64,000 nt of DNA from Candidatus Saccharimonadales bacterium (lineage in GTDB: Bacteria > Patescibacteriota > Saccharimonadia > Saccharimonadales > DATKHC01): positions 2,876 to 66,875 of the forward strand of contig DATKHC010000021.1 of assembly GCA_035510465.1 (NCBI GenBank), read 5' to 3'. Below are positions 28,708 to 59,902 of this stretch, in pieces; the first letter of the stretch is position 1; each line of letters starts with the position of its first letter. The translations under genes were made by a program, and so were the position numbers. Below the pieces are notes generated by a model. It was not told where the DNA came from, ran no database searches, and saw nothing but the letters and a program-made list of their open reading frames with translations.

Positions 28708-28753
28708 ATTGTTAAACCTTCTTGGCAGTAACTATTCTGCCGTGAGATAGCGA

Positions 28754-28900
28754 CTATTCGCTTTTCTTACCAGTTTCGCGGCGGGTAGTATGGACCTTTA
28801 CAGGCGACTTCGCATTTACGCGGCGGGCCAGTTTGAGCACCAAATGGCTACGTCTTGTTCCCGTGCGGCGTGGCGATGTACGTTTCTTAGGTTTACCCAT
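28754..28900 (-). CDS. rpmF: 50S ribosomal protein L32
   Basis: Own translation of a 48-aa ORF below the track cutoff: MGKPKKRTSPRRTGTRRSHLVLKLARRVNAKSPVKVHTTRRETGKKSE. It matches the L32 N-terminal PK[KR]RTSxxRxxxRRSH motif. Confidence 0.7.
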   Translation of the reverse strand: MGKPKKRTSPRRTGTRRSHLVLKLARRVNAKSPVKVHTTRRETGKKSE

Positions 28901-29009
28901 GCTATTAAAAAGTTTTTAACTCCTATTTATTTATAAAATTGGCTAATGCCTCATTAATAAGGTTAGCTTATTTTTAAGCTTAACTCAAGCCGTTTATCCC
29001 TGTTCAGGG

Positions 29010-31619: not shown

Positions 31620-31640
31620 AATGATTATTTTAACAAAGTG

Positions 31641-32807
31641 CTAAAACTGCTTTAAAAAGTTAGTTGAAAACGTGGTGTTCTTGTCGCTTTGTTCTTTGAA
31701 TCGTTGCTCAGCAAATTCCACTAACTTTTCTACCAGTTGGACATTTGATATACTCACACTTCGCCAGTTATGAGCGTACAGACTACCGGGAAGGGGATTA
31801 ACCTCGTTAAAATACGGCTTTTTGGCTTTACTATCAACAAGTAAGTCTACCCTCGCTATTCCGCTAGCTCCAATAGAGCTATAGACAGTTTTAGCTATCT
31901 CTAAGCATTCTTGTCTCAATGACTCCTCTAAACGAGCTGGGATATGACTATACCCCTGAGCACCCTGTTTTGCTCCGCTTGCTTGGGCTTTTTGGGTTTT
32001 ATTCCCACCTTTCATATATTTGGTTTCGAAATCAAAGAAACCGTCGCCCTGGTTTGGTTCTTCTGTATTACCAGTAATCAGCTCGTGATTACCCATAACA
32101 GGCACGGTCACTTCAACTAAGTTGGGTACGGCTTCCTCAATTATCACCTTATTGTCATAAAAAAGAGCCACTTCTATAGCATTATCAAGCTCAGACTTAC
32201 TTTCTACTTTGGTTATGGCAATACTAGATCCAAGATGGGTTGGTTTTACGAAAAGGGGGAATTCAAGCCTGCTTATCCGCTCAAAAATTTTCTTTTGATT
32301 GTCCTTAAAGTCATCGGCACTAAACCAAACATACTTATTTTGGTCGACTCCAGCTTCTGCAGCCACCGTTCGCGCTAATACTTTATCCATAGCGATAGCA
32401 CTTGAAGCTACGTTACAGCCAACGTAAGCAACATTTGCCATTTCGAAAACGCCCATCAGTGATCCATCTTCGCCATACGTTCCATGAGTGGCCGGAAAAG
32501 CTACATCTACTTTCACTGATTTGTTCCTCAGACCCGGATGAAGCAATGTGAGTCCTCCGTTAAATTGAACTGTCAGAGGAGTAAGTTTCTCTAAAAAAGT
32601 CTCAATTTTTGCCAAAGAGTATATTTCGACTTGGGCAAGCTTGGAATCTGAGAACCACCGACCTTTTTTATCAATGTAAACAGGTACTACTTCATATTTA
32701 CCACTGAGTTGAAGCGGTTTGATAATGGTGGAGATAGCCGTAATTATCGAGACATCATGTTCGGTTGAACGAGAACCGAAAAAAACAGCAACTGTGGGTT
32801 TTTTCAT
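31641..32807 (-). CDS. ddl: D-alanine--D-alanine ligase
   Basis: FGSRSTEHDVS...HGTYGEDGSLMG...ATP-grasp pattern, ending in NEVNPLPG. Confidence 0.93.
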   Translation of the reverse strand: MKKPTVAVFFGSRSTEHDVSIITAISTIIKPLQLSGKYEVVPVYIDKKGRWFSDSKLAQVEIYSLAKIETFLEKLTPLTVQFNGGLTLLHPGLRNKSVKVDVAFPATHGTYGEDGSLMGVFEMANVAYVGCNVASSAIAMDKVLARTVAAEAGVDQNKYVWFSADDFKDNQKKIFERISRLEFPLFVKPTHLGSSIAITKVESKSELDNAIEVALFYDNKVIIEEAVPNLVEVTVPVMGNHELITGNTEEPNQGDGFFDFETKYMKGGNKTQKAQASGAKQGAQGYSHIPARLEESLRQECLEIAKTVYSSIGASGIARVDLLVDSKAKKPYFNEVNPLPGSLYAHNWRSVSISNVQLVEKLVEFAEQRFKEQSDKNTTFSTNFLKQF

Positions 32808-32831
32808 CTGATTAAAAGTATACCAAGCTTT

Positions 32832-34271
32832 TTAATAATAGTTATCCGGCCAATCGTTCTGCATAAGCACAAGATCACCTGACGCCACAAACTGTTCTAA
32901 ATTGGTATAAAAACTCAGGGGGTCGTCCTCTATTCTTAGCTCGCCCTTGAAACCCACTTCTTTTAGTCCGGCAGAGATCAGACTGGTAACTGAATTTCTC
33001 ATCAGAACCACAACGTCGGGATTAGCCTTGGCTATTAATCGTCCCACCTCGTGGTGAACTGATTTCGTTTCAACCCCTTGATCGACTAGCCCTGGCGTAA
33101 CGTAAATCTTCCTTCTGGCTGATAGTTCCTCTAGAAGCTCCAAGCCAGCCCTGATGCCTTCGATATTCCCGTTATACGTATCATCAATAACAAACGCTCC
33201 AGCCAGCTCACGAGGTTCCATTCTGTGTTCAAAAGCCGAGGTCTTAGAAATTCCAGCCTCAACCTGATATTTGGTCAGTCCTAAACCGAGTGCAATGACC
33301 GCAACTGAGGAAAGGGGGCCTATCTGGTGTCTGCCCAGTAGATTACTTTTTAGATCAAGCTCCTGCTTGCCTTTTTTTAGCTTAAAACTAATCCCCTCAA
33401 AATCTACTTTTATATTCTGAGCTTTCCACTCGCCTACACCAGATTCCGAATAGACAAAGTCTCCCGCGGTAATAAATGGTTTGAGCGAGCTAGACTCTCC
33501 GTTGACGTAGCTATCTTTGTGTTTTAGATATTCAGTCAAATAGAAAATATCAGTGCCTGCAGCCTCTAGAGTTGGGTAATGATTAAGGTGGGCGGGGGCT
33601 AAACCGGTGATTACTCCCACATTTGGATAAGTTTTCTCACAAAAAGATTTTATATCGCCAGGTCGTTCTTCGCCGTACTCTATTATCAGTACTTGCTCAT
33701 CACCACTCAATTTTGCGGCGAATTCAGCGTGAGAGACAGAAACGTTCTTATTGGCAGGCGTGGCCGCAACCTTTTTAGCCTCAGCTAGAACAACGGCTAA
33801 AAGTTCCTTCATTGTTGTCTTACCGTAACTTCCAGCTACTGCGATTTTCACGGCTGGATGATTTTTGAATATGGCTTTGGATTTGGAGATTAATTGTCTC
33901 TGCATTGGTAAAACTACCAACCAGCGTGACAACGCCACGGGTATTACAAGTACGTAAGCCCAAATTAGGGGGTAGGCAATTAAGATACTAACCCCAATCT
34001 CTGTATAGCCTACAATGTGATCAAACGTTCCTAGATAGACAAAATAAAATCCAACGATAAGTTCAACTAATATGCCTATATTCAGTAGTAAAAGCAGGGA
34101 TCTGGCCCGCATTGTTTTGTCCAATTTGCCCCTCACGGCAATTTTTCGAAAATTACTCGTCCGCCAATACCATTTAAGATAAGGTACGGCCTGATATTCG
34201 CACCTTTGCATCATGTATACCAAAGCTTTGGGGTAGCTAGGCGAATAGAAACTGAGTATCCCTTTAAGCAT
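32832..34271 (-). CDS. murF: UDP-MurNAc-tripeptide--D-Ala-D-Ala ligase (MurF) with an N-terminal membrane domain
   Basis: Mur ligase P-loop AVAGSYGKTTMKE and C-terminal Mur domains. The first ~130 aa contain about 3 hydrophobic helices. Confidence 0.85.
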   Translation of the reverse strand: MLKGILSFYSPSYPKALVYMMQRCEYQAVPYLKWYWRTSNFRKIAVRGKLDKTMRARSLLLLLNIGILVELIVGFYFVYLGTFDHIVGYTEIGVSILIAYPLIWAYVLVIPVALSRWLVVLPMQRQLISKSKAIFKNHPAVKIAVAGSYGKTTMKELLAVVLAEAKKVAATPANKNVSVSHAEFAAKLSGDEQVLIIEYGEERPGDIKSFCEKTYPNVGVITGLAPAHLNHYPTLEAAGTDIFYLTEYLKHKDSYVNGESSSLKPFITAGDFVYSESGVGEWKAQNIKVDFEGISFKLKKGKQELDLKSNLLGRHQIGPLSSVAVIALGLGLTKYQVEAGISKTSAFEHRMEPRELAGAFVIDDTYNGNIEGIRAGLELLEELSARRKIYVTPGLVDQGVETKSVHHEVGRLIAKANPDVVVLMRNSVTSLISAGLKEVGFKGELRIEDDPLSFYTNLEQFVASGDLVLMQNDWPDNYY

Positions 34272-35016
34272 TTAAAAAGCCTTTGATTATTTTTTCGACT
34301 TGAATTGGTTGATCATGGTGAACAAAATGCCCAGCGCTATCTAGAATTTTAAGCTCACTCTGGTCAATTAACTGGTGGAATTTCTCGCCATCCCCGCTCG
34401 GTGTATCATGGTCATCCTGTCCATAAATAAGAAGTGTCTTAACTTTCAAATTTCTGGCATCAGCTTGGACATCGGTTTTAATAATATTGGCGTATGTTGC
34501 TTGCATCTCTGGGACCACTAACATATCTGACCCAATTGCATTGTAAAAGCGGTTTCTGATAGATTTTTTTGCCCGCTTGGGCAAAACAGCCGTTAGCACT
34601 TTACCTGACTTTGCTGAGACTTTTAGGACTTTTTTCTTTAGTTTATGGTCATCTCGTATTCCTGCTGAGGCTAGTAGGACTAATTTTTGAGCAGAAAGTT
34701 TTCCTTGAGCTAGTCCACGAATTAATATAGATCCACCATTTGAATGGCCAATATAACTAAAGACTTTCAGGTTCAGTTTGCTCGAGAAGTCTGAGAGCGT
34801 TTTTACATAATCATCTAGTGTGAATGTGGACTTGGACATAGTAGACTGACCAAAACCGGGTAGATCAAGAGAGATTACCTCATAATCTCGACTCAGAGAC
34901 CTTTGAAGATCATAAAAGCTAGCTAAGCTGTTACCCCAACCGTGTACCAAGACTACGGTCTGACCCCGGCCAACTTTTTCATAGTGAATCGCCTGACCAT
35001 CTACCAGAACTTGCAT
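34264..35016 (-). CDS. Alpha/beta hydrolase
   Basis: HGWG oxyanion motif, nucleophile elbow GHSNGG and a C-terminal GHFVHHD. Confidence 0.8.
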   Translation of the reverse strand: MQVLVDGQAIHYEKVGRGQTVVLVHGWGNSLASFYDLQRSLSRDYEVISLDLPGFGQSTMSKSTFTLDDYVKTLSDFSSKLNLKVFSYIGHSNGGSILIRGLAQGKLSAQKLVLLASAGIRDDHKLKKKVLKVSAKSGKVLTAVLPKRAKKSIRNRFYNAIGSDMLVVPEMQATYANIIKTDVQADARNLKVKTLLIYGQDDHDTPSGDGEKFHQLIDQSELKILDSAGHFVHHDQPIQVEKIIKGFLNA

Positions 35017-35042
35017 GACATAAAGTATAGATGTATTTATGC

Positions 35043-35921
35043 TTATTGAATAGTTTGTAGCTGACTCTCTAGCTGTGTTATTGGGATTGATTTGGTCGGA
35101 AGGGAGATAGGTATCTGTGTGCCATATCCAGAAAAGGTTTCTCGTCTTGAGGTGCCAACTTGGGTATCAGAGACTAGCTGTCTTGAGATTACGTCAACAG
35201 TGACGTGGAATTCAGACACGTTTGCCGAGAAAGAGCCGGCGTTAATACTACTGAGTTGGTTTAGTCCGATATCTTCGCCAAATTGTTTGATCATCTCAAT
35301 AAATTGTCTTGTGTTAACGTTTACGTTATACGTAATCTGAGGTCTGCCAGAAGTGGAGATCTTTTTAGGTTTTCCGACGATTTGATAAACATCGTTTGCG
35401 GTAATAAAATGCATCAGACTTTGCCTTTGAGCGATACTTAAGTTGGCCATTGGGACCACCGTTAATATAGATTCATTGAAGAGTTGACCATCCGTAACCT
35501 GATCTCCAGCAGGGGAGCTTTTACCCCAGACTCCAATAACAGAACTAAAGTTCGCGGTTTGTCCTTTAGAATTTTTTTGAGGTGTTTTTACTTCGGTATA
35601 ACGAGCGTAATCTGTGGTTGGAGTACCTATACTCTCTGTTTTAACGATGCTGTTGGGGCCCAGATCCACGCTTATGACCGATTCCGCATCATTAGATGAA
35701 CCTGTTTCAACCGTTACATATTGCTTTGTTTGGCTAGAAGAAGGCTGAACTATCTCTTTTGAGAAGCTACTTGTTGACAGGCTTCTCTCAAGCATCCCAT
35801 AAAATACTTTAGTGGGGTTATCGTAAATCTTGACCCAGAACAAACAAACACCGACGATCATGAGAATAACTATCAGCACAAGAGCGTATCGAATTGATAA
35901 TTTCTGTTTAACGGAACTCAT
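35043..35921 (-). CDS. Membrane-anchored hypothetical protein
   Basis: 292 aa, single N-terminal TM (YALVLIVILMIVGVCLFWV), extracytoplasmic remainder. Confidence 0.55.
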   Translation of the reverse strand: MSSVKQKLSIRYALVLIVILMIVGVCLFWVKIYDNPTKVFYGMLERSLSTSSFSKEIVQPSSSQTKQYVTVETGSSNDAESVISVDLGPNSIVKTESIGTPTTDYARYTEVKTPQKNSKGQTANFSSVIGVWGKSSPAGDQVTDGQLFNESILTVVPMANLSIAQRQSLMHFITANDVYQIVGKPKKISTSGRPQITYNVNVNTRQFIEMIKQFGEDIGLNQLSSINAGSFSANVSEFHVTVDVISRQLVSDTQVGTSRRETFSGYGTQIPISLPTKSIPITQLESQLQTIQ

Positions 35922-35991
35922 TTAACCGGCCCTTTAGCATTGGACTTAATTGTAGCAGGTTGGCAAGTATAAATTATAATTAGGTTATCTT

Positions 35992-36067
35992 GGGGATGTA
36001 GCTCAGTTGGTAGAGCGCAGCATTCGCATTGCTGAGGCCCGGGGTTCGATTCCCCGCATCTCCACCA
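35992..36067 (+). tRNA. tRNA-Ala (anticodon CGC)
   Basis: Manual cloverleaf: GGGGATG acceptor with G3:U70, anticodon loop TTCGCAT, T-loop TTCGATT, encoded CCA. Confidence 0.9.
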
Positions 36068-36086
36068 GATAATGTTTTATTATTAC

Positions 36087-36560
36087 TTATTTTTCAAGCA
36101 GTCTAGCAAGCTTATCGATGCTTTGAGTCCATCCCATCTTCATGCCAGCAAGTGGCCCTTCAGCTTCTGGAGTTACTTTTGTTACGACTATGTGAAGCGT
36201 CATTTTTGTCCCAGCGTCATCTTCTTCAAATGTCACAGTGTTTAGACAATCTAATATTGGTTTACCCTCCATGATCGCACTTGATGAGTAGACAAGTTTT
36301 TCCGGTGAGGTAACTTCCTGGAAGACTCCTTTCATTGGCCACTTACTCCCCTGTAAATCACCGAGTTCTTCCCCGGCCAGCATGACCACGTCAATTGCTC
36401 CACCTGGCTGGGCATCCCATTCACAGGTTGGGTTTGTAACACCTTCGGGGCCCCACCACTTTGCAACTAAACTTGGATCGGTCCAAGCTTTAAAAACTTT
36501 TTCTCTCGGCGCGTTAAATACTCTTGTAATAGTTAATTCTCTGTTGTCGTCGTCTGACAT
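36087..36560 (-). CDS. SRPBCC/AHSA1-family protein
   Basis: LTITRVFNAPREKVFKAWTDPSLVAKWWGP is the AHSA1-like N-terminal signature. Confidence 0.8.
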   Translation of the reverse strand: MSDDDNRELTITRVFNAPREKVFKAWTDPSLVAKWWGPEGVTNPTCEWDAQPGGAIDVVMLAGEELGDLQGSKWPMKGVFQEVTSPEKLVYSSSAIMEGKPILDCLNTVTFEEDDAGTKMTLHIVVTKVTPEAEGPLAGMKMGWTQSIDKLARLLEK

Positions 36561-36573
36561 ACTATTCTCCTTA

Positions 36574-37031
36574 TTAATTAGTTAATGCAGTCTCAAGCGC
36601 TTTTAGTAGCTCCTTCGAACCTTGTTCACGGTTCTCGGGTTTATCATAACCATCTAAAAACACCCCGTATTCATGCAAATCTAATTCAGTGCCATCACCA
36701 CTAACAGCAAACTCTATAGTCGTTACTGAAACCGAAATACGAATATCGTCTAAGTACATTTCGTAGCAGTAGACAATCCTCTGCTCTGGGACAATGTCAT
36801 AATATTGAGCTTTAAAAACATGGACTACACCATCATGAAACTTTCCGCTGTTGAATTCTGTTCCACCAACCCTAAAATCCATAGAATGCTTGGTGCTGCC
36901 ATCATCACTAAGGCCCTTAAACGACTTTTCTTTAGACCCCTTGTCTGCAAACATTTGATAAACCTTGCTTAAGGAGCCTTAAATTCTCTACTAACACTAA
37001 ACTCTGCGTGGATGACACTACTTTGTTTCAT
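36574..37031 (-). pseudogene. SRPBCC/AHSA1-family gene with an apparent 1-nt deletion (frameshift) near codon 20
   Basis: The ATG at 37031 gives MKQSSVIHAEFSVSREFKAP then TAA (36969-36971). The -1 frame continues LSKVYQMFADKG into track ORF 36574..36954. Joined, REFKAPLSKVYQMF fits the family N-terminus. Confidence 0.6.
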
Positions 37032-37361
37032 CTAATTCCCCTCCTCTTTTAATAATTCTTCTAACGCATCAAACCTAACGTTCCAAAGTTTTTCATACTG
37101 ATCCAAGTAATCCCGGACGCTCTTAAGAGCTGCTGGTTCGGCTGTAACAAATTGCTTTCGTCCGCTTCGTCGTTTGCTTATGAGTTTAGCTTTTTCAAGA
37201 ATTTGTAAATGTTTCGAGACAGCAGCAAAACTCATTTTATAGTGCTCGGCAATTTCTCCAACTGTTTGCCCACGGCCAGATAACCTTTGCAAAATATCCC
37301 GTCTTGTAGAGTTAGCAAGTGAATTTAAGACCAAATCTAGCTGTATAGCATATTCAACCAT
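37032..37361 (-). CDS. ArsR-family winged-helix transcriptional regulator
   Basis: 109 aa with LANSTRRDILQRL...TVGEIAEHYKMSFAAVSKHLQILEKAKLI (HTH). Its stop abuts the next ATG (TAGATG). Confidence 0.85.
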   Translation of the reverse strand: MVEYAIQLDLVLNSLANSTRRDILQRLSGRGQTVGEIAEHYKMSFAAVSKHLQILEKAKLISKRRSGRKQFVTAEPAALKSVRDYLDQYEKLWNVRFDALEELLKEEGN

Positions 37362-37369
37362 TTCGTTGA

Positions 37370-37398
37370 ATGTTACTATCTAATCTTTTTCGTGTCAA
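37370..37398 (-). promoter_or_regulatory. Sigma70-like promoter of the arsR-SRPBCC operon
   Basis: On the minus strand: TTGACA, 17 nt, TAACAT, 8 nt, ATG. Confidence 0.5.
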
Positions 37399-37414
37399 GC
37401 AATTTTTTTATTAA

Positions 37415-38056
37415 TTGGTTATGGTTGCTATCTACTTAGTTTGGTATCATTATTTGTCTATGACGGAAATGGGGACCCCAGTAGGTGATCTAAGTAAATC
37501 ACCTGCATCGGTGGTAGTTGAAATCCAACAAGCAATCCTGACATCTCTGGATCTTGAGGTAGATAATTTCGAAGGCATTAAGGAACATTTAGTAGAAGTT
37601 AAAATTAAGCCAAACTCAATTATATTTTTGCCTTCTGCGTTAGGTGGATTTGTCAGCCAATACCGAGAAGAGTACGGCCCCAAGGGTAATGTCATGCACT
37701 GGAGTGATATACCCGCAGATTGTGATAGTTTCCGTGCTTTTATATTATGTGCATCAACAATTTTAGGCGACCCCGGTCCCCCTATTCTTCATTTGAGTTT
37801 GTTTATAAATGATGTCGACGCCGGCTCAATCGGCATAAGACTGACTGACGTAGAAGAAATATCTATTTATCCGGATAACGCCGCAGAGATGTTGAATATG
37901 TATCAAGAGGCTGAAATGGATGGAGATACACTCGCTTATAACGAGATACATGGGCTTAACGGAGCTCCCGTGTGGAAGAGGGAAGAGATTCAGCCTTATT
38001 TAACAGATCTGTGGCCAGATCCTGATATGATTTTTCAAAAATCAGATTTCGTATAA
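37415..38056 (+). CDS. Hypothetical acidic protein
   Basis: 213-aa ORF. A more likely start is the ATG at 37460 (MTEMGTPV...). No domain recognised. Confidence 0.45.
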   Translation: MVMVAIYLVWYHYLSMTEMGTPVGDLSKSPASVVVEIQQAILTSLDLEVDNFEGIKEHLVEVKIKPNSIIFLPSALGGFVSQYREEYGPKGNVMHWSDIPADCDSFRAFILCASTILGDPGPPILHLSLFINDVDAGSIGIRLTDVEEISIYPDNAAEMLNMYQEAEMDGDTLAYNEIHGLNGAPVWKREEIQPYLTDLWPDPDMIFQKSDFV

Positions 38057-38072
38057 TCAGTCACTTATCAGA

Positions 38073-38149
38073 TGGTGGAGCTAGAGGGACTCAAACCCTC
38101 GACCTCATCTATGCCATAGATGCGCTCTAATCAACTGAGCTATAGCCCC
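38073..38149 (-). tRNA. tRNA-Ala (anticodon GGC) with non-canonical D/T loops
   Basis: Manual cloverleaf: GGGGCTA acceptor with G3:U70, anticodon loop ATGGCAT. D-loop AGTTGATTA (no GG) and T-loop TTTGAGT (U instead of C56). Confidence 0.85.
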
Positions 38150-38156
38150 AAATAAA

Positions 38157-38453
38157 ATGGTGGACCTTGTGGGACAGCTTTCAAACCCTTTGTCAACCCT
38201 GTTATCCCTGGTGGCAGGGTCAGAAAGAGTCGAAAAAGTCCTCAGGTCTACGAAAAATTGTAACCGGTTGCAGTTGAAACACCAAACACAGGTTCGTCTT
38301 GGGACCAAAGCTGTTGCTGAGCTGATCCAGGCCTACCAAGCTGGTGAGCCGATCAATTCCCTAGCTGAGCGCTTCTTCATTCACCGCACCACTGTCATCG
38401 AGCATGTCAGGAGATCCGGGGTGAAAATAAGGTGGGAGTCCAGGAGGAAGTGA
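38157..38453 (+). CDS. Truncated HTH protein, paralog of 55802..56230
   Basis: AVAELIQAYQAGEPINSLAERFFIHRTTVIEHVRR aligns with RVEDLIRGYIEGVPVDDLATQFGVDQSTVQKHARR. It lacks the second HTH. Its 3' end overlaps an opposite-strand ORF. Confidence 0.5.
   Translation: MVDLVGQLSNPLSTLLSLVAGSERVEKVLRSTKNCNRLQLKHQTQVRLGTKAVAELIQAYQAGEPINSLAERFFIHRTTVIEHVRRSGVKIRWESRRK
38158..38189 (+). repeat. Partial degenerate duplicate of the tRNA-Ala(GGC) 3' end (att-like)
   Basis: TGGTGGACCTTGTGGGAC-agctt-TCAAACCCT versus the tRNA strand TGGTGGAGCTAGAGGGAC-TCAAACCCT. That is 15/18, a 5-nt insertion, then 9/9. It lies 8 nt from the tRNA 5' end. Confidence 0.65.
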
Positions 38454-38600
38454 GGTCTTTGATCTCTTCTTGACACCTTCAATCTGTTCTGAGGTTAGTT
38501 CCTTGGCTAGCTCCATATAGGTCCTGGCTAGTTTTCTTAGATCCGGGTTTTCCTTGCGAATTCCTCGAACTCTGATAATCCTTCTCGGTTGCTTTGACTT

Positions 38601-38630
38601 CATTGACGCGATCTATTGTCGCGCTGATAG
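38601..38630 (+). repeat. 30-nt intergenic motif, copy 1
   Basis: CATTGACGCGATCTATTGTCGCGCTGATAG. The 20-nt core GACGCGATCTATTGTCGCGC is identical in all 3 copies and contains a CGCGA/TCGCG stem with a 7-nt loop. Confidence 0.7.
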
Positions 38631-38654
38631 GAAAAAATTACAAAGTTTGCTTAA

Positions 38655-39206
38655 TTACTGTCGTGTAAGCCACTTCTTTCTTATATCTCTTGAGATAGAG
38701 AAATATAAGATCCAAAAAACTGATGGGTAAAATAGTCGTGCATTGGAAATGAACACGTCATATAAAATACCCGGTGTGTGGACAGCGTCTTTAACAATAT
38801 TTTGATAAATAGCTTCAGCAATGAAGAACCACAATACATAGGCACTGAAATAGCTTATGCTCAAAACAATTGAAATCCTTTTCTTCAGGTTTACAAAGAA
38901 TCCAATCAATAGAGCACCAAGGATCTTTAAGACGTGTGCAACCTGAACTGCAACGTAATAGCCATGCAAGCTTGGATAAGCTGTATTTATTTGGGGCGTA
39001 AGTTTTGAGAACAAACCCTGATACTGGTGTAAATAATAGAGGTTATATACAACTACGTAACCAAGATAAATTAAAAATAGAATTAAAAAGATATTGTACT
39101 TATATGCCTGGAATATTTGACTACTTTCTTTGATCGGTTGTTCTCCAACTCTTGATGCAATGTTCTTCGGTGACGTGTTTTTTCTTGACCGTATATCCTG
39201 TTCCAT
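38655..39206 (-). CDS. Polytopic membrane protein
   Basis: 183 aa with about 5 TM helices. TGCTACAAT (extended -10) lies 7 nt upstream of the ATG. Confidence 0.55.
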   Translation of the reverse strand: MEQDIRSRKNTSPKNIASRVGEQPIKESSQIFQAYKYNIFLILFLIYLGYVVVYNLYYLHQYQGLFSKLTPQINTAYPSLHGYYVAVQVAHVLKILGALLIGFFVNLKKRISIVLSISYFSAYVLWFFIAEAIYQNIVKDAVHTPGILYDVFISNARLFYPSVFWILYFSISRDIRKKWLTRQ

Positions 39207-39240
39207 TGAAATTATTGTAGCACCCCCACATATAACGGTA

Positions 39241-39270
39241 TTTAGACGCGATCTATTGTCGCGCCGATAC
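39241..39270 (+). repeat. 30-nt intergenic motif, copy 2
   Basis: TTTAGACGCGATCTATTGTCGCGCCGATAC, with the same 20-nt core. Confidence 0.7.
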
Positions 39271-39287
39271 GAATTAATTAATAGTAG

Positions 39288-39893
39288 TTATTGAGCAAGC
39301 TGTATTTGAGAAGCACTTGAGATAATCATTTCGGGTTCACCTTTGTAGTTAGTGATAGTTCCTGTGACATCTACGGACTGACCTGAGTATTGACTCAGGA
39401 CACTAGGGCCAAATGAAGTTCCGGCCGGGATATATGCAGAGAAGCCATACGGAGCCGATAAATACTGATCCAGATACATCTCTCCCCTTGAGGAGGTATA
39501 AGCATAGCCAGTAAAGTTAATGCAACCACTTGTACCCTCCATACTGGCTGCATCAGAAACCGGTGAACAAGATGGCGTCGTGCTAGCTGGAGGAGAAGTG
39601 GTTTGCGATGGAGCGGTACTAGCAGGGCTTGTCGAAGTCGTTTGAGGAGTTGTTGTCGTTGCGGGCGCAGGAGAAGTTATTGTCAAATTAGGACTTTTGC
39701 TAGTCGCCGAAGTACTCTTCTGACTGGTTTGTTGCACGTCTATTGGAGTAGAGGTGTTTTTGTGCGAACCAACGGCACCTAGAACTATCAGGAACGCCAC
39801 CACTCCAATTGCTATGCCCGCTTTCTTGTTACTTGATAGCTTTTTCTTTTTGTTAGAGTTCTTTTTTACTTCGTCCTGACCTTGTGTATCCAT
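39288..39893 (-). CDS. Membrane-anchored S/T/P-rich protein with a C-terminal OB-fold-like domain
   Basis: 201 aa: N-terminal TM, a TSxP-rich linker and a C-terminal QSVDVTGTITNYKGEPEMIISSASQIQL that resembles OB-fold termini (weak). Confidence 0.5.
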   Translation of the reverse strand: MDTQGQDEVKKNSNKKKKLSSNKKAGIAIGVVAFLIVLGAVGSHKNTSTPIDVQQTSQKSTSATSKSPNLTITSPAPATTTTPQTTSTSPASTAPSQTTSPPASTTPSCSPVSDAASMEGTSGCINFTGYAYTSSRGEMYLDQYLSAPYGFSAYIPAGTSFGPSVLSQYSGQSVDVTGTITNYKGEPEMIISSASQIQLAQ

Positions 39894-39969
39894 ATGAAGC
39901 CTCTACTTAAGAATTATTAGTTTAAGTATAGCTCGGCCTACATAATATATGTACTTAATATTTGAGTTT

Positions 39970-39999
39970 CATTGACGCGATCTATTGTCGCGCCAATAG
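39970..39999 (+). repeat. 30-nt intergenic motif, copy 3
   Basis: CATTGACGCGATCTATTGTCGCGCCAATAG, with the same 20-nt core. Confidence 0.7.
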
Positions 40000-40071
40000 T
40001 TTCAACAAATAATCTAGTGATACTTGAAGATATTATTTTACGTCGTACAATAAAGTGTGTAAGGAGTTAAT

Positions 40072-40251
40072 ATGGCCAAATCAAATCAAACTAAAAGAAG
40101 CACTCAATCATTAAAAGTTACAAAACAGGAACTTTCGGGAGCCGGACACGTTTTAGGTGACAAGAAGGCAACGAAAGCGGAGAAAACAGATGCTGCTCTA
40201 CTATTAAGAGCTTCGCAAAAATCCGCAAAGTCCAAACCCCAAAAGAACTAG
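40072..40251 (+). CDS. Small basic protein (59 aa) upstream of the protease
   Basis: Own translation: MAKSNQTKRSTQSLKVTKQELSGAGHVLGDKKATKAEKTDAALLLRASQKSAKSKPQKN. AAGGAG SD 5 nt upstream. The stop is 3 nt before the protease ATG. One residue below the track cutoff. Confidence 0.45.
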   Translation: MAKSNQTKRSTQSLKVTKQELSGAGHVLGDKKATKAEKTDAALLLRASQKSAKSKPQKN

Positions 40252-40254
40252 TCT

Positions 40255-41028
40255 ATGCCATTGACCATCACGGCTTTCAATCAATCCGTTGGCGCTCCTA
40301 GCCCAGTTTCTGGTGGGCCTGACCGAGCAGTTGCTGCCATATTTACCGCTGATAAGAATGAGCGCGAAACTAATCCGTTAACTGTCCGCAACTGTTTAGG
40401 TACAGGATTTCTGGTCAATGGTTATGATATCCACTTTGTTACGGCTAGACACGTAGTAGCGGCTCCTCTAGCGCAAGACGAGGAGCTAGTTCTTGCATTT
40501 AACTTGGACTCTGGCTTTTTAAGCATACCTGTTAATTCACTTAGCTTATCAGACTCAACAGATTTAGCATTTGGAACTCTGCTTCCGGAGAACGACGTTA
40601 CAATTCCTGGTTTTCAAATAGCAAGAACTGTACCAATCAACACCGATTGCTCTACGTTGGAACATAGTGGGACAGGACGCAACGTTAGTGCCGGAGGGAT
40701 GCTATATAACGTGAGGTATAGACGAGGAAATATTGTCTCAAGTGGTAAATATGAATATGAGGGGATCTTATCTGAGTCTACGGTCTTTGAAATGTCATAC
40801 CCTTGCTTGTGGGGAGCCAGTGGCTCGCCGGTATTTAACTCAGCCACCCTGGAGTTGGTGGGGATGATGGTTCAGAACGTTGATCACGAACTCGCTCCCA
40901 GCCAGTTAATAAAAGCTGTGGATGACGAGGGACAACTAATCGAAGAAATTAAGTACACAATACCTCAGGGGATCGCGCTAAGTGCGGTAACTATAAACAG
41001 TGAGCTTGACGTCCACGTACTGCATTAA
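40255..41028 (+). CDS. Cytoplasmic trypsin-like (chymotrypsin-fold, Trypsin_2-type) serine protease
   Basis: The catalytic triad can be read off: GTGFLV...FVTARHVV (His), STDLAF (Asp), WGASGSPVF (Ser). No signal peptide or TM. Confidence 0.8.
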   Translation: MPLTITAFNQSVGAPSPVSGGPDRAVAAIFTADKNERETNPLTVRNCLGTGFLVNGYDIHFVTARHVVAAPLAQDEELVLAFNLDSGFLSIPVNSLSLSDSTDLAFGTLLPENDVTIPGFQIARTVPINTDCSTLEHSGTGRNVSAGGMLYNVRYRRGNIVSSGKYEYEGILSESTVFEMSYPCLWGASGSPVFNSATLELVGMMVQNVDHELAPSQLIKAVDDEGQLIEEIKYTIPQGIALSAVTINSELDVHVLH

Positions 41029-41058
41029 ATAAAAAAGGACCATTGGAAATAGAGCTTA

Positions 41059-41766
41059 TTACCTATTCTGAACGTGAGTCACTAAATCATCCAGTAGAGC
41101 TTTAGTGTTAGGGACTAAACCCTTATCTAGAAATACATCAGCTTTATCCGAACTCCTCATCGCTTTTACTACAGGCCCATTATTCTTGGAGTATCCAAAA
41201 GAATTCATCAATACCCCGGAGTCAGAATCCTCAGGATGCTCCAATAGTTTATTTCTCACATTTCTTACAGGGGCAGAGTCAAGCTTCTTTAGGCCCGGAA
41301 GCTTTTGTAGAGTCTTTAATAATCTCGCAGCTCCATAGTAATAATCTGAAACCTTATCTACTAGGTAGTATATGATCTCACGCTCAGCTTCTGGAATATT
41401 CTTTTCGTCTTGTTCATCATAATCAAGTATCGTTGCGCTGACGGACTCAGAATGAACTTCTCTCGGGTTGGGCCCTAAGTGCTTAAGTAACTGTGCAACT
41501 TCAGGGTTAGTCTTGGCGTTTTTCTCTAGGAGTTGAATCATTTCACTGGAAGAAGGAAGTTTCCCGGAGGCCTTTCCGAGTTCCAGGAGTTGAGTAGTCT
41601 TCTCGACTATGTCCTTATATGACCGCTTCAACCTCCGTAGACGTGCCAAACATTCTGACGCCAGTTGCTCTTGTGTATTATCCAGTGAACTACCTATTTG
41701 ACTGAGGTACACTTTCAAGCTCTCAATTACTTCATCGAATTGTGTATCTAAGTCTGGATAGCTCAT
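41059..41766 (-). CDS. Hypothetical helical protein (convergent with the protease)
   Basis: 235-aa ORF, predicted helical, no motif recognised. Confidence 0.5.
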   Translation of the reverse strand: MSYPDLDTQFDEVIESLKVYLSQIGSSLDNTQEQLASECLARLRRLKRSYKDIVEKTTQLLELGKASGKLPSSSEMIQLLEKNAKTNPEVAQLLKHLGPNPREVHSESVSATILDYDEQDEKNIPEAEREIIYYLVDKVSDYYYGAARLLKTLQKLPGLKKLDSAPVRNVRNKLLEHPEDSDSGVLMNSFGYSKNNGPVVKAMRSSDKADVFLDKGLVPNTKALLDDLVTHVQNR

Positions 41767-41838
41767 AAGGTGGTATTCAGTTTAACTAACTTGCAAATCA
41801 AAATTCAATAGCTACTTAATCTATAAACATAAGCGTAA

Positions 41839-41915
41839 TGGTGGGTGATGAGGGGCTCGAACCCCCGACCTCCTCGGTGTAAACGAGGCGCTCTAGCCAA
41901 CTGAGCTAATCACCC
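41839..41915 (-). tRNA. tRNA-Val (anticodon TAC)
   Basis: Manual cloverleaf: GGGTGAT acceptor, anticodon loop TTTACAC, T-loop TTCGAGC, encoded CCA. Confidence 0.9.
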
Positions 41916-42075
41916 GCATATAAAGTCATTGGTAAACGAAAAGTTTACCATATTCCTCAAAAAAGCATTATAAAGTAAAACTATACTTGGGGTAAGTATT
42001 TATAGTTCTGATCATATCCAGAGTATTTATTTTTACCCCTTGACTAATCGTAATTCTTGTGCTTAAATATATATC

Positions 42076-42960
42076 ATGAAAAAGTGGTTCAATCTGGATA
42101 GAATTACTAGAGTTTTCAGAGGGTTTTTAGTACTCAGTTTACTTGGATTTTTTCTTTTAACGTCCCCTGGCTATGCCCTTTCCCCTAACTCCTCAGGCAG
42201 CCCTACGCACATGCTTAATCTTAGCCCCGCTGTTGGCAGCTTAGCCGACGGTTCTTCTGGCCCAATTACGGGTTCTAGTCAAGGGGTATGTGAGGGTAGT
42301 TTCTGTTGGTATTATTCCGGAGCAGAAGAAAATTACATTAATGCAAAGGGTGCATCGGTTTCGATGACACAAGCCGATCCAGTTGTTAGTACCACCGACT
42401 ACCACTCCCTAACTGAAATAGCTCTTAAGTCTCAAAACGGACAACAAATCGTAGAATTTGGTTGGATAGTTGCGCCTGAAATGTTTGGTGATTCTCTACC
42501 TCATCTGTTTGTATACCACTGGGTGAACGGTAACTCAACTTGCTATGACACTTGTGGTTACATTTCTTTAGCTTCCCCCAACCCCGTTGGAAGTCCTGTC
42601 ACGGTCGGTCAAACTGGCAAATACGAAATCAAGTACTCGGGCAATAAATGGGAAATTATCTATAACGGTCAGTATATAGGCTACTTCCCTGAGTCAATTT
42701 GGGGTGGTAGCTTTAAAAAAGCATTTACGGTAGAGATTTACGGAGAAGTTTCTGCACCGAACGGAGTAGCCCCAACAACCCAAATGGGTAACGCTATTCT
42801 TGGTAACGAACCTGGTGCTGCACAAGTTTCAAATTACGATCTTATAAACTCACCTGTTAAAGAAAAGTTGTATCCTTTCGTTTTCGGTGACCCAAGATCA
42901 TACGCCATAGGCAACGTCACAAAAACCAGCTTTAGCTACGGCGGCCCAGGCGGTTATTAA
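42076..42960 (+). CDS. Secreted neprosin/DUF239-like protein
   Basis: Signal/TM at the N-terminus. HSLTEIALKSQNGQQIVEFGWIV...LFVYHWVNG...CYDTCGYISL...NKWEIIYNGQYIGYFPESIW follows the neprosin-domain pattern as I recall it. Confidence 0.6.
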   Translation: MKKWFNLDRITRVFRGFLVLSLLGFFLLTSPGYALSPNSSGSPTHMLNLSPAVGSLADGSSGPITGSSQGVCEGSFCWYYSGAEENYINAKGASVSMTQADPVVSTTDYHSLTEIALKSQNGQQIVEFGWIVAPEMFGDSLPHLFVYHWVNGNSTCYDTCGYISLASPNPVGSPVTVGQTGKYEIKYSGNKWEIIYNGQYIGYFPESIWGGSFKKAFTVEIYGEVSAPNGVAPTTQMGNAILGNEPGAAQVSNYDLINSPVKEKLYPFVFGDPRSYAIGNVTKTSFSYGGPGGY

Positions 42961-42975
42961 GCTTTTGTCGATGGC

Positions 42976-44574
42976 TTAGCTGTCTAACTCTCTCTTTACA
43001 ATCAACGAACCGGCCCCGACATGTATTTGTCTAGCTCTTCTCGCACCATGTTCGAGCATTGCCCTAAACTGGTCATTGGTCATTTGTTCTCTGTCAATTA
43101 AATCGGAGAAATCTTTATCATTTTGCATCATCCCTTGCCTGAACTCAGCTCCATAATCTTTAGGGAAAGCGAAGGTAACCCTTACGCCTAGACTCTGGAG
43201 ATATTGTTGCTCTGCTAACAGTTTAGGGTAAGGACTGTTCGGAATTTCGCTAAGACGAACGTAACCATCTCCGCGCCTAACTAGGGGATCAATATATCTA
43301 TTTTTTAACGGACCCACCAAATAACTCAAAGCATCCGAGTTATCAAGTCGAGGTATTTTTACTTGATCCAGTACAGCTCGCTCCTCATCAGTTAACTCAA
43401 CTACTTCAGTATGAACAGTTGAAGATTTTGGCCCAAACTCAACACGTTTCGGTCCAAGATAATCAGATGGATAGTTTTCAGCCTTATCGTCCAGAATAAA
43501 TCTAGCGTACTCGGCTAAGCGATAGTTGGTAAACTTTTTTCGCTCTTCCATGCCACTAGAGTTCAGCTCGTTAGAAATTAAATAGATAAATGTATCTGTT
43601 GAGCCCGGACCCGTTACTAGTGCGTCATTAAAATCCTGGTCGATTGCATGAAAATAGGATATGGGGGTTCGGGTTTGACCCTTATCCACTTCGTCCATCC
43701 AGCTAAGTCTACGACTCATAATTGAATGTTGGACTGCGTGGATACCTAAGTGAAGATGTGTCCGATTTAGGGGATCGTTATAGTGTTCAGCAGCAAAAAG
43801 TAGAAGTAGCTTGGACAATACCAAAGCCGCCTCCTCATCCATAATTGCCAGTTGACCATCTGGGGTAAGTTCATAATTGGATAGATCTACAGCTTTTTTA
43901 ACCTTCTCTCTCACTTGAGGATCGACGTATTCATGATCAAACCAGAGCAAAGCTTCGGCGGCAATATATTGCAATCGATCAACATCAATGTCTCGTCTGT
44001 CTTTTGCTTTAGCCCATTCAGGAACCTCAATACCCGGAACTCTTATCTTTTCGTCATAAGGTATTCCATACCGATCTAACACCCCTGTAAAACCACCTAG
44101 GTTTGCAATCCTGGGCCAAATAACTTCATGCCAATCTTCAGGACCACCCCAGTTCTGAACTGCTTGTTCAAGTTGATGAGAAAAAGCTGGGTGGGCCTGG
44201 TCATCTCCTTCAACGTCAATGTGTATAGCTTGGATACGTTCAGGTGATAAGCCTTGCATATGTCCAAACCGCTCAACAAGTTCATGTTGAGCTATAAGAC
44301 CCCAGCCCCTATTAAAGCTAGCAAGGTTAGGGATAGTGCTACTTTCTCGGCTTTTGCATAGTTGTGATACACCCAATGACCTGAAAAAACTGGTGGTAGT
44401 AAACAGATCGTAGCTTACAGGATCCGTTATAACGAAATCCCCAAGCCAAGGATCTTCCACCATTATGAAACCTTCGTTGACGGTCAATCTCATAACATCA
44501 TGCCCCGTACTGAAGCAAGTAATCTCAGGGTCTCTCTCCACGTGCAGACCATATCCTGAAGAAATTTCATTCAT
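42976..44574 (-). CDS. HD-domain (SAMHD1/dGTPase-like) family protein with substituted metal-binding residues
   Basis: DPWLGDFVI...FFRSLGVSQL...ASFNRGWGL...VEGDDQAHPAFSHQLE...WHE parallels DPvhG / FQRLrxIkQLG / tRfeHSlGV / LLHDiGHxPFSHxxE. The first His and the His of HD are replaced. I prefer the ATG at 44574 to the track start at 44610. Confidence 0.55.
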   Translation of the reverse strand: MNEISSGYGLHVERDPEITCFSTGHDVMRLTVNEGFIMVEDPWLGDFVITDPVSYDLFTTTSFFRSLGVSQLCKSRESSTIPNLASFNRGWGLIAQHELVERFGHMQGLSPERIQAIHIDVEGDDQAHPAFSHQLEQAVQNWGGPEDWHEVIWPRIANLGGFTGVLDRYGIPYDEKIRVPGIEVPEWAKAKDRRDIDVDRLQYIAAEALLWFDHEYVDPQVREKVKKAVDLSNYELTPDGQLAIMDEEAALVLSKLLLLFAAEHYNDPLNRTHLHLGIHAVQHSIMSRRLSWMDEVDKGQTRTPISYFHAIDQDFNDALVTGPGSTDTFIYLISNELNSSGMEERKKFTNYRLAEYARFILDDKAENYPSDYLGPKRVEFGPKSSTVHTEVVELTDEERAVLDQVKIPRLDNSDALSYLVGPLKNRYIDPLVRRGDGYVRLSEIPNSPYPKLLAEQQYLQSLGVRVTFAFPKDYGAEFRQGMMQNDKDFSDLIDREQMTNDQFRAMLEHGARRARQIHVGAGSLIVKRELDS

Positions 44575-55010: not shown

Positions 55011-55058
55011 TTTAATATCCCTTCGGAGAATTAATAGATCCCTATTAAGAGTCCGCTC

Positions 55059-55115
55059 TGGTGGACTTGAAGCACTTTCTTTCGAACACCTCTTAAGCTG
55101 GCAAGATCATCTCCT
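55059..55115 (+). repeat. R1 repeat, copy C
   Basis: TGGTGGACTTGAAGCACTTTCTTTCGAACACCTCTTAAGCTGGCAAGATCATCTCCT. The left flank GTCCGCTC is shared with the copy at 55800. Confidence 0.8.
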
Positions 55116-55717: not shown

Positions 55718-55799
55718 TACGATATTTCATTATTTTTCGAACACAAAATTGGATTACTCTACCCCTGTTTACATATCAAGCTAATCTTCAAGTCCGCTC

Positions 55800-55829
55800 T
55801 GGTGGAGGTAATGGGACGTTACTTGAACC
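55800..55829 (+). repeat. Diverged R1/att-like copy at the left border of the GC-rich island
   Basis: TGGTGGAGGTAATGGGAC-gttac-TTGAACC versus the tRNA-Leu(CAG) 3' end strand TGGTGGGGATGAGAGGAC-TCGAACC. That is 13/18, a 5-nt insertion, then 6/7. Confidence 0.6.
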
Positions 55830-56230
55830 ATTCTGACCAGGGAGAATGCCTCCGGAACCTCCTCGAAATGCTCCCATCTGGGTCCAAAACGGCGAAAGTT
55901 CGAACCCCAAGGCGGGTCTGCCGGCGTCTCGACCCATCCCGCGTGGAGGACCTAATCCGGGGCTACATAGAGGGAGTGCCGGTCGATGATCTCGCCACCC
56001 AGTTCGGGGTTGATCAGAGCACCGTCCAGAAGCACGCTCGCCGACATGACTTGCCCCGCCGGTCACCCCGATTAGGTCCTAACCAGACCGAGGAGGCAGT
56101 TCGGCTCTATCTCGCTGGTCAGTCCTTGGCCAAACTGTCCGATCACTTCGGTGTTGCGACTGACACCGTCGCTCTTGCTTTGCGTAGAACCGGGGTCACC
56201 TTGCGACCACGGCGGGGGTGGTCGAAGTAG
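55802..56230 (+). CDS. Tandem helix-turn-helix DNA-binding protein
   Basis: Two HTH units: VPVDDLATQFGVDQSTVQKHARR and QSLAKLSDHFGVATDTVALALRR. GTG start inside the att-like repeat. Confidence 0.6.
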   Translation: MEVMGRYLNHSDQGECLRNLLEMLPSGSKTAKVRTPRRVCRRLDPSRVEDLIRGYIEGVPVDDLATQFGVDQSTVQKHARRHDLPRRSPRLGPNQTEEAVRLYLAGQSLAKLSDHFGVATDTVALALRRTGVTLRPRRGWSK

Positions 56231-57873: not shown

Positions 57874-57954
57874 GATAGATCAATTCTAACATGCGCAACC
57901 AAAATGCGGACACGCACATCTTGATCCTCGAAGATGCGTATTGCTCTATCTACC

Positions 57955-59161: not shown

Positions 59162-59176
59162 TCTTACAAATCCTTG

Positions 59177-59662: not shown

Positions 59663-59816
59663 AGCAAAATACCTTGACGGACTTGAACCATTTAACAGCG
59701 GTCGCGATTTTGGGGTTGAGTGACAACCAGTGACGCGTAGCCACACGGTTTTGGTTGTCCGGTACATCGTGTACCTCTGTTATAGTGGGATCTATTCTAT
59801 ACTATTCCTATAGTTA

Positions 59817-59902
59817 TGGTGGGGATGAGAGGACTCGAACCTCCACGGGCTATGCCCACTAGTACCTGAAACTAGCGTGTATACCAATTTCACCACATCC
59901 CC
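59817..59902 (-). tRNA. tRNA-Leu (anticodon CAG)
   Basis: Manual fold: GGGGATG acceptor, anticodon loop TTCAGGT, long variable arm, T-loop TTCGAGT, encoded CCA. Confidence 0.85.

Follow-up and report, generated by a model that had tools for sequence, protein, structure and literature searches.

Within the window, by which we mean the whole 64,000-nt stretch of DNA analyzed here, a 32-nt block at 38158..38189 (plus strand) resembles the 3′ end of a neighboring tRNA gene. That neighbor is an intact tRNA-Ala(GGC) (38073..38149, minus strand; identified by ARAGORN and scoring 62.4 bits against the Rfam tRNA model), whose 5′ end faces the block across an AT-rich spacer at 38150..38156. The spacer runs up to an ATG at 38157, and the 8-nt spacer counted in a first-pass annotation of this DNA (38150-38157) includes the A of that codon. 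The ATG opens a truncated gene of 98 amino acids (38157..38453, plus strand) that encodes a helix-turn-helix (HTH) unit, and the block takes in the final TG of the start codon and then codons 2-11 (V D L V G Q L S N P). On the plus strand it reads TGGTGGACCTTGTGGGAC-agctt-TCAAACCCT, and the tRNA strand at 38073-38099 reads TGGTGGAGCTAGAGGGAC-TCAAACCCT. Aligned to the tRNA 3′ end, the block matches at 15 of 18 positions and, after a 5-nt gap, at 9 of 9 (24/27 overall); the 5-nt "insertion", agctt, corresponds to the Gln-Leu codons. These coordinates and counts are those of the first-pass annotation, which our recomputation reproduced, as is the location of the copy next to the 5′ end of the tRNA gene; the two are in direct orientation. 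Loci and proteins compared in the analysis are designated by L- and P-numbers, respectively.

The gene opened by the block proved homologous, as had been proposed, to the HTH gene of an island at 55.8 kb in the same window (BLASTP E value of 3e-9). It also aligns with P0104, a 152-residue protein encoded at L005 (E value of 5.8e-14, 43% identity), the N-termini reading MVDLVGQLSNPLSTL in the window and MVDLVEQVSNPLSTL in P0104; Pfam matches (HTH_28, HTH_23 and HTH_7) are weak. Only residues 1-95 of P0104 align to the window by tblastn (alignment A2), such that the first HTH is retained and the second is absent in every frame. With respect to the features that define the family, the 38-kb copy contains the in-frame leader motif V-x-x-x-G-[RQ]-x-[SL]-N, ungapped and in register (alignment A4), and lacks the full complement of two HTH units spanning ~140-150 amino acids. 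Judged by sequence comparison, the 38-kb gene is a truncated member of a double-HTH family of ~140-150 amino acids. It lies in a patch of ~350 bp in which guanine-cytosine (GC) content is 0.47-0.52 (38100-38500) before dropping to 0.34 beyond; the gene itself has a GC content of 0.51, versus 0.43 for the host. Such a patch fits a decayed scar of foreign DNA, and together with the protein homology it supports the earlier proposal of a truncated scar from the same family as the 55.8-kb island. An open reading frame (ORF) on the opposite strand (38361..38603, minus strand) does overlap the HTH gene, as first reported. This ORF of 80 amino acids (51 in public assemblies) is probably not a real conserved gene: it had no homologue but itself among 5.8 billion proteins and no match in family searches, and we treat it as spurious.

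How close is the block to a tRNA? Its local-alignment score against tRNA-Ala(GGC) is 26, compared with a window background of 12.3 (standard deviation 2.4; 6394 tiles of 60 nt, both strands), and, outside true tRNA genes, a score of 26 or more is reached in the window by a single unrelated tile, at 57041 (score 28). We also ran an alignment of the kind that the first-pass annotation had suggested, against 125 tRNAs drawn from the window and from 80 related loci of Saccharibacteria. The adjacent tRNA-Ala(GGC) came out as the top match (mean 13.7, standard deviation 3.1, runner-up 24). The resemblance therefore appears better than chance for a site specified in advance, yet it is neither unique in the window nor overwhelming. 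It does not extend past the T-arm, as the alignment stops after 27 tRNA bases, and no cloverleaf remnant was found by ARAGORN or Rfam. More broadly, neither a tRNA remnant nor an RNA family was detected at 38158-38240 (ARAGORN; Rfam at the gathering threshold and, around the site, at E≤10), and a promoter and terminator scan found no promoter for tRNA-Ala inside the block. An attachment-site (att) repeat would be expected as an exact or near-exact, ungapped tRNA 3′ copy, separated by the island from the 3′ end of the tRNA; here the match is 24/27, needs a 5-nt gap, and lies 8 nt from the tRNA 5′ end.

By comparison, the block aligns without gaps to other members of the HTH family. Specifically, L005 matches it at 28 of 32 positions and matches the first 54 nt from the ATG at 47; the ATG marks the exact start of the DNA homology, and no tRNA lies in the 44 nt that precede it in L005. 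A third copy, from the Saccharibacteria genome at L073, is full length save for one in-frame stop, starts with ATGGTGGAAAACATGGGACAGCTTTCAAACCCT and encodes a protein matching that of the window with an E value of 1e-10. Its block agrees with the window at 27 of 32 ungapped positions, including 19 identical bases (GGGACAGCTTTCAAACCCT) that span agctt, and the nearest tRNA is 2.1 kb from its HTH gene. Under the same scoring that gives 26 against tRNA-Ala(GGC), the window sequence scores 47 (32-nt query) or 73 (54-nt query) against L005. Each tRNA-matching base of the window block is also found in L005 or L073, and nothing in these alignments therefore suggests local copying or gene conversion from tRNA-Ala(GGC). 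The first-pass annotation had described the block as a duplicate of the tRNA's own 3′ end, and had itself named conservation as a coding N-terminus with no tRNA nearby as the observation that would tell against this. That is what the comparison revealed, as the same 32 nt, "insertion" included, occur in L005 and L073 with no adjacent tRNA.

The tRNA likeness is instead a property of the family. All members share a leader of the form GTGGA(G/C)..-GGGAC-N5-TYRAACC, of which the window block (GTGGA..TGGGAC-N5-TCAAACC) is one version. Variation is minimal over the first ~48 nt (GTGGAGGTAATGGGACGTTACTTGAACCAYTCTGACCAGGGAGAAYGT), including between genes whose proteins are only 45-50% identical; synonymous sites are nearly invariant as well, and the leader keeps AT-ending codons that are unusual in contigs of 58-68% GC. 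Read as nucleic acid, the leader is an imitation of the tRNA-Ala 3′ end, comprising the acceptor 3′ strand and the T-arm with five extra bases in the T-loop. The likeness is closest in a subfamily (L003b and L113, also L103 and L139) whose leader reads GTGGAGGTGAGCGGAC-AACTC-TC(G/A)AACC; the reverse complement of the tRNA-Ala(CGC) 3′ end in L133 and L126 reads GTGGAGGTGAGCGGAC-TCGAACC, with an identical 16-mer. Compared with tRNA-Ala(CGC), L003b matches at 16/16 and 7/7 positions around a 5-nt insertion placed as in the window (6/7 for the last part in L113). Its score of 37 was reached by 0 of 5000 shuffles (maximum 26), and non-Ala tRNAs score at most 22.

Several further observations concern the leader. 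It is preceded by a diverged copy of itself, with the 16-mer GGACGYTACTYRAACC occurring twice, ~29 nt apart (L004:7930-8050, L093:5820-5940, L003:1935-2030 and others), and a second motif (CAGGGAGAACGT) recurs upstream of and inside the HTH gene; both are likely to be protein-binding sites. A role for the leader as an RNA element was considered and dropped, as RNAalifold on 31 sequences returned three pairs at -0.4 kcal/mol without covariation. ARAGORN called a tRNA-His over the start of the L113 HTH gene, apparently a false positive triggered by the tRNA-like block itself.

With respect to its distribution, the family appears to be at home outside the Saccharibacteria. The 55.8-kb paralogue has 103 homologues, many of them 80-88% identical. 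The 63 metagenome loci, collected with an alignment of a closer set of members (the first alignment being too divergent), have GC contents of 58-68%, and the L003 and L004 contigs from ENA are at 62%. These two donor-like contigs carry Pfam families related to mycothiol (MDMPI_N; MST/DinB_2), which we take to point to Actinobacteria. The main home of the family, and the source of the Saccharibacteria copies, is thus probably the Actinobacteria. Saccharibacteria copies stand out as GC-rich imports, probably from that phylum: the GC content of the HTH gene against that of the host is 0.51/0.43 at 38 kb and 0.60/0.43 at 55.8 kb in the window, 0.64/0.39 in L034, 0.71/0.50 in L017 and 0.46/0.39 in L073. 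In both window copies, as in L034 and L017 (members from other Saccharibacteria genomes, with no tRNA on the contig), AT-rich host sequence meets foreign DNA right at (A/T)TGGTGG. The L034 gene begins 8 nt past the stop codon of a folA-like gene, and an IS256-type transposase adjoins the GC-rich insert (L034:98-1291). A tRNA lies within 6 kb of the HTH start in 6 of the 63 metagenome loci, and a credible adjacent tRNA in none. Clustering of all ORFs from 67 loci identified no conserved neighbors beyond the HTH gene and its antisense ORF; adjacent genes vary from locus to locus, and the neighbor in L003 is unrelated to the window cargo. On sequenced plasmids and phages the family is essentially absent, with one weak match to a Microbacterium plasmid and none to a phage. 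Apparent clustering of the HTH genes near a Mur-ligase cluster (L017, L034, L073) was also considered as a hotspot and set aside, the count fitting random placement given the sampling.

As for the protein, the AlphaFold model (pLDDT, the predicted local distance difference test, of 77) describes a bipartite HTH with two three-helix units in tandem. The top Foldseek matches are 2LVS (E value of 2.8e-4), the Tc3 bipartite domain 1U78, IstA and Mos1, all weak (template-modeling score about 0.3) because the two HTH halves are flexibly linked.

In contigs of actinobacterial type, the tRNA likeness of the leader coincides with a precise DNA junction. This junction always reads ..GA/GTGGAG (..CGA/GTGGAG.., the slash marking the join), and at it an identical arm meets a tRNA-Ala gene in some cases and an HTH gene in others. 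One arm, U1 (...GGTGTACCTGGCCGGACGCTACTCAAACCGA), was found beside an intact tRNA-Ala(TGC) at L086:7633 and beside the HTH genes of L003b, L004, L093, L094 and L102 (up to 93% over 74 nt); U1 ends in 30 nt, GTGTACCTGGCCGGAC-GCTAC-TCAAACC, that form a further, diverged copy of the block. A second, U2 (...AACGTTGnAAnAAGGACCACGA), lies beside a tRNA-Ala(TGC)-like sequence at L132:11653 and beside the HTH genes of L088 and L139, and a U2-type arm upstream of the L117 gene was recognized by eye. In L133 a U2-like arm adjoins tRNA-Ala(CGC), with the HTH gene 3.2 kb off and the arm on both sides. The units so delimited (HTH gene, variable cargo and arm; 2.4-3.2 kb) have a single orientation and are sometimes tandem. 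L093 contains such an array, in the order HTH_1, a 623-residue membrane protein, U1 and HTH_2, and in L086 a pseudo-tRNA (2348), an HTH block (5267) and the tRNA (7633) follow one another on one strand. Overall, seven tRNA-Ala-like 3′ ends in the long loci are on the strand of the HTH gene and none is on the opposite strand. Given the shared junction, single orientation and tandem layout, the leader block behaves like the attachment-site repeat of small islands targeting tRNA-Ala, and we infer that the junction was made by site-specific recombination.

Two independent units (L133:6001-9264 and L093:3308-5890) carry similar cargo, a membrane protein of ~620-630 residues on the opposite strand; that of L133 corresponds to the Pfam PMT_2/YkcB_C glycosyltransferases, and the genes of L086 differ. 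At L134:2878-4944, the ORF of a large serine recombinase runs stop-free and in frame into the HTH gene. It is the sole recombinase that we found adjoining any family member, and constitutes a candidate for the enzyme acting on the leader.

Taken together, these observations lead us to favor, as the likely explanation, that the block opens a double-HTH gene which was acquired horizontally and has since decayed, and that its tRNA likeness arrived with the gene as a family-wide, att-type repeat. Under this proposal, the family leader would derive from tRNA-Ala and sit at a precise recombination junction in Actinobacteria, where it acts, or once acted, as an attachment-site repeat for units moved by a recombinase encoded elsewhere. 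The units, each with an HTH gene, variable cargo and an arm, would lie singly or in tandem beside tRNA-Ala genes, and the HTH protein would bind the repeated 16-mers. The Saccharibacterium would have acquired such DNA at least twice, with the 38-kb copy shrinking to ~350 bp, the leader and the first HTH. The likeness of the block to the adjacent tRNA-Ala(GGC) would then follow from the tRNA-Ala ancestry of the family and the strong conservation of tRNA-Ala 3′ ends. The first-pass idea of an integrated-element scar stands in part, in that the truncated HTH gene belongs to the same family and its block is att-like across that family; there is no recombinase, and the block is not a duplicate of tRNA-Ala(GGC).

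Several points weigh against this explanation. The window block lies on the 5′ side of its tRNA-Ala, whereas the island model predicts the 3′ side, and the fact that the adjacent tRNA is the best of the 125 is left as coincidence or a preference for tRNA flanks. The consensus block of the main family fits tRNA-Ala less well (13/16 and 6/7) than the P0050-type block does. The units examined contained no recombinase, and neither an empty site nor a circular junction was observed directly. Contigs in which a U arm adjoins an HTH gene could be tandem arrays rather than excised circles, and the arms could be conserved native DNA downstream of tRNA-Ala rather than element ends. Finally, the foreign DNA of the 55.8-kb island ends ~60-100 nt short of its tRNA-Leu, such that site-specific insertion there is only putative.

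Two of the alternatives dispense with any imported att-type repeat. Were the block an ordinary conserved coding N-terminus without tRNA ancestry, its likeness to tRNA would be pure coincidence, and the chance alignment of similar score at 57041, the background-level match of the main-family consensus to tRNAs (Ala mean 14.7 versus 15.1 for non-Ala) and the lack of conserved RNA structure would all be as expected. This is difficult to reconcile with the 16/16 and 7/7 match to tRNA-Ala(CGC), with its insertion at the same place and a score that none of 5000 shuffles attains, with identical arms meeting tRNA-Ala or an HTH gene at one junction, with the 7-to-0 strand bias, and with synonymous sites and rare codons being kept in contigs of 58-68% GC; we regard coincidence as very unlikely. 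Still less probable, to the point of being nearly discounted, is a local origin in which the block is a degenerate duplicate of the tRNA-Ala(GGC) 3′ end, either an att scar or the remnant of a former tandem tRNA-Ala. It does account for the best match among 125 tRNAs lying a mere 8 nt away and for the perfect GTGGAGCT core held by tRNA-Ala(GGC). Moreover, at L080 a genuine tRNA-Ala(CGC) is found 12 nt upstream of tRNA-Ala(GGC), although the block is unlike that tRNA and L080 is one of 27 relatives, all of them distant (≤59% Mur ligase identity). Set against a local origin are the block and its 5-nt "insertion" shared with L005 and L073, the want of any tRNA-matching base confined to the window, a location beside the tRNA 5′ end where an att repeat would not be expected, and the absence of a recombinase. 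The tandem-copy version put forward in the first-pass annotation fares no better: similarity ends after 27 nt, ARAGORN and Rfam report no pseudogene or cloverleaf remnant, and a CCACCA-ending fragment precedes tRNA-Ala(GGC) at 0 of the 27 related loci.

Two other alternatives accept the foreign origin of the gene and differ in how it arrived. One extends the explanation we favor, with 38158-41838 as a single 3.7-kb island at the 3′ end of tRNA-Val(TAC) (41839..41915, minus strand; ARAGORN), the HTH block as its far-end repeat and tRNA-Ala(GGC) as the original downstream neighbor. The layout parallels those of L086, L133 and the 55.8-kb island (an inward-facing block and HTH gene, 2.4-4 kb of cargo and a minus-strand tRNA 3′ end), the 80 related loci lack homologues of the enclosed genes in their flanks, a trypsin-like gene among those enclosed weakly matches models of defense systems, and a sister sample (SRR8676597) has 38125-41868, from the 5′ side of tRNA-Ala to the 3′ end of tRNA-Val, as a separate contig. 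Nonetheless, GC content past 38500 is host-like (0.30-0.49), no U-like arm adjoins tRNA-Val and the two ends share only TGGTGG, no cargo homology links this region with the 55.8-kb island, and a Val-Ala tandem occurs in no relative. The assembly also breaks on both sides of tRNA-Val, as expected of any tRNA shared in a metagenome, and the break positions do not fit a simple deletion allele to the base. An island of this extent is unlikely in our estimation. About equally doubtful is the uptake of actinobacterial DNA fragments, from the host of the epibiont, by natural transformation, followed by microhomology-mediated (illegitimate) insertion where their tRNA-like ends met short matches (TGGTGG/CCACCA) near tRNA genes, which would require no site-specific recombinase. 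In its favor, the boundary of host and foreign DNA falls right at (A/T)TGGTGG in both window copies, L034 and L017, a 16-nt exact host repeat at 55050 and 55791 ends in TGGTGGA, no Saccharibacteria copy has a recombinase, and donor-like contigs share the HTH gene alone, not the cargo. Yet TGGTGG is also no more than the start codon of the gene and the GTG after it, a point at which homology would stop in any case, no donor-recipient pair was identified, and the precise junctions in Actinobacteria would be left unexplained.

The preferred reading, of an imported att-type repeat, can be set beside known systems. Integration at tRNA 3′ ends is the common pattern, and the decay and accretion of elements at one att site have been described for cis-mobilizable elements (CIMEs) and tandem islands (PMC5704250). 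As with the attL and attR repeats of tRNA 3′-end elements (integrative and mobilizable elements with tyrosine integrases, integrative and conjugative elements, and their actinomycete counterparts, the AICEs), a partial direct copy of a tRNA 3′ end bounds foreign genes, and identical element arms are joined to the tRNA or to the repeat. In contrast to those repeats, that of the HTH family is inexact, has a fixed 5-nt insertion in the T-loop, and doubles as ribosome-binding site, start codon and first ~12 codons; no integrase lies beside the tRNA, and the window copy is 5′ of the nearest tRNA-Ala. Like CIMEs, the HTH units keep att-like ends without recombination genes, and units and remnants are stacked one way beside a tRNA (L086, L093 and L133). 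They differ from CIMEs in that each has retained a conserved HTH gene at one terminus and is very small (2.4-3.2 kb), and in that no intact parent element was found save for the neighboring serine recombinase of L134; mobilization in trans is putative.

At the level of the protein, the predicted tandem three-helix units resemble the bipartite (paired-like) HTH domains of Tc1/mariner-IS630 and IS21 transposases and of the CRISPR-repeat-binding protein Cbp1. Bipartite HTH domains bind repeated or bipartite DNA sites. Unlike transposases, the family has neither a catalytic domain nor a downstream transposase, and homology ends at the stop codon. Integron cassette arrays offer an analogy only: small one-way tandem units, variable cargo, a conserved repeat and a recombinase elsewhere would be common to both, whereas the HTH repeat has no attC hairpin or IntI, is coding and at the 5′ end, and belongs to an array anchored at a tRNA gene.

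A broader version of the proposal is possible, though we would not count it as probable. Here double-HTH genes would mark an undescribed tRNA-anchored cassette system in which units stack at tRNA-Ala by site-specific recombination at a pseudo-tRNA-Ala repeat encoding the HTH start. The recombinase would act in trans (the L134-type serine enzyme being a candidate), the HTH protein would bind GGACGTTACTYRAACC 16-mers, and several crossings from Actinobacteria to Saccharibacteria epibionts would have left scars such as that at 38158.

In terms of significance, the apparent tRNA duplication becomes a footprint of imported DNA, and, taken on its own, the 38-kb feature is of modest interest, being a decayed remnant. 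The uptake by a small Saccharibacteria genome of GC-rich, apparently actinobacterial DNA, at least twice, bears on how epibionts acquire genes from their hosts. What would be new is a variant of tRNA-anchored islands, at the level of the family: an attachment-type repeat of tRNA origin that doubles as the beginning of a bipartite-HTH gene and meets tRNA-Ala at a junction precise to the base, in recombinase-less units that reach Saccharibacteria. Islands at tRNA 3′ ends and CIME accretion are known. If the junctions do arise by site-specific recombination, the family would provide a compact model for how integrase-less islands persist and stack at tRNA genes, and GTGGAG..GGGAC-N5-TYRAACC would serve as a signature for finding such islands in metagenomes.

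The better-preserved of the two imports in the window begins at 55.8 kb. Its double-HTH gene (55802..56230, plus strand; 142/139 amino acids, GC 0.60) is intact, codes for a product predicted to adopt a bipartite HTH fold, has 103 homologues at up to 88% identity, and forms the left end of a GC-rich island at 55.8-59.7 kb. The gene carries the same pseudo-tRNA leader block, TGGTGGAGGTAATGGGAC-GTTAC-TTGAACC (55800..55849, plus strand), nearly invariant across more than 60 loci. DNA homology to other contigs is limited to the gene alone (55800/55802..56221/56248), which is 82-84% identical to Actinobacteria-like contigs of 62-64% GC; across 55800-59760 the GC content is 0.48-0.52, versus 0.42. 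As located by ARAGORN and the GC profile, a tRNA-Leu(CAG) (59817..59902, minus strand) adjoins the right end. Within the island, 124 nt before the 3′ end of that tRNA, is a T-arm-like remnant, GGACTTGAACC (59679..59693, plus strand), which matches the T-arm of tRNA-like sequences in L119 and L121. Part of the cargo is a 390-residue protein containing a TIR-like domain (E value of 1.4e-11 to the PADLOC effector TIR), there is no recombinase, and the island looks like a defense-type import into a Saccharibacterium from the phylum of its presumed host. Among the ORFs of 36-42 kb and 55-60 kb, searches against Pfam (and, for subsets, NCBIfam, PHROGs and PADLOC) identified no recombinase family, and no cargo homology was found between 38.6-41.8 kb and 56.2-59.8 kb. 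At the left edge, an exact 16-nt direct repeat, AGTCCGCTCTGGTGGA, which ends in TGGTGGA, occurs at 55050-55065 and 55791-55806, flanking 741 bp that hold a RelB-like antitoxin ORF (55406-55681, minus strand). Precisely where the second of these copies stops, the HTH leader starts, and the repeat could be an insertion footprint or microhomology.

The host of the window is a Saccharibacterium. A Mur-ligase gene 4 kb away has its best relatives (51-59% identity) only in genomes labeled Saccharibacteria, Saccharimonadales or Patescibacteria, and a LeuRS-Ddl-Mur-hydrolase-292aa cluster is syntenic in them. Between 36.07 and 45.4 kb, nearly everything is without a counterpart in the relatives' flanks, the exceptions being single weak matches to ArsR and a 544-residue ORF, and the HTH gene. 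The T-loop of tRNA-Ala(GGC) (TTTGAGT), first described as unusual, turned out to be ordinary for one Saccharibacteria subclade. Of 28 tRNA-Ala(GGC) genes (27 related loci and the window), 13 have TTT, always paired with the D-loop TTGA. In 14 others TTC goes with GG, and in the last it accompanies an unclassified D-loop; TTT is absent from all 97 remaining tRNAs. Covariation of the two loops is near-perfect across the window gene and the 27 genes of L009-L083. The G19:C56 tertiary pair of tRNAs is near-universal, and the TTGA/TTT covariation fits its replacement by A19:U56 in one subclade.

The sister sample offers a population view of the locus. Three of its Logan contigs, SRR8676597_14496, _29058 and _1057618, correspond to window positions 27032-38154, 38125-41868 and 41886-43497, with 30-nt overlaps, and they break 5 nt past the 5′ end of tRNA-Ala and at both ends of tRNA-Val, with no break on the 3′ side of tRNA-Ala. 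Strain differences rightward of 38154 are one possible source of the breaks. As population evidence, those at 38154, 41868 and 41886 are ambiguous: tRNA-Val has a break at either end, which is what a tRNA shared in a metagenome would show. On its other side, tRNA-Ala(GGC) (minus strand) converges 3′ end to 3′ end with a tRNA-Ala(CGC) (plus strand) over 2 kb of accessory genes (35992-38149), which comprise two AHSA1/SRPBCC genes, an ArsR gene and a 211-residue orphan. The flanks of the 80 related loci hold no counterparts of these genes save for one weak ArsR match, and the two tRNA-Ala genes are sometimes tandem in relatives (L080 and L041), which suggests that a rearrangement or insertion took place between them in the window.

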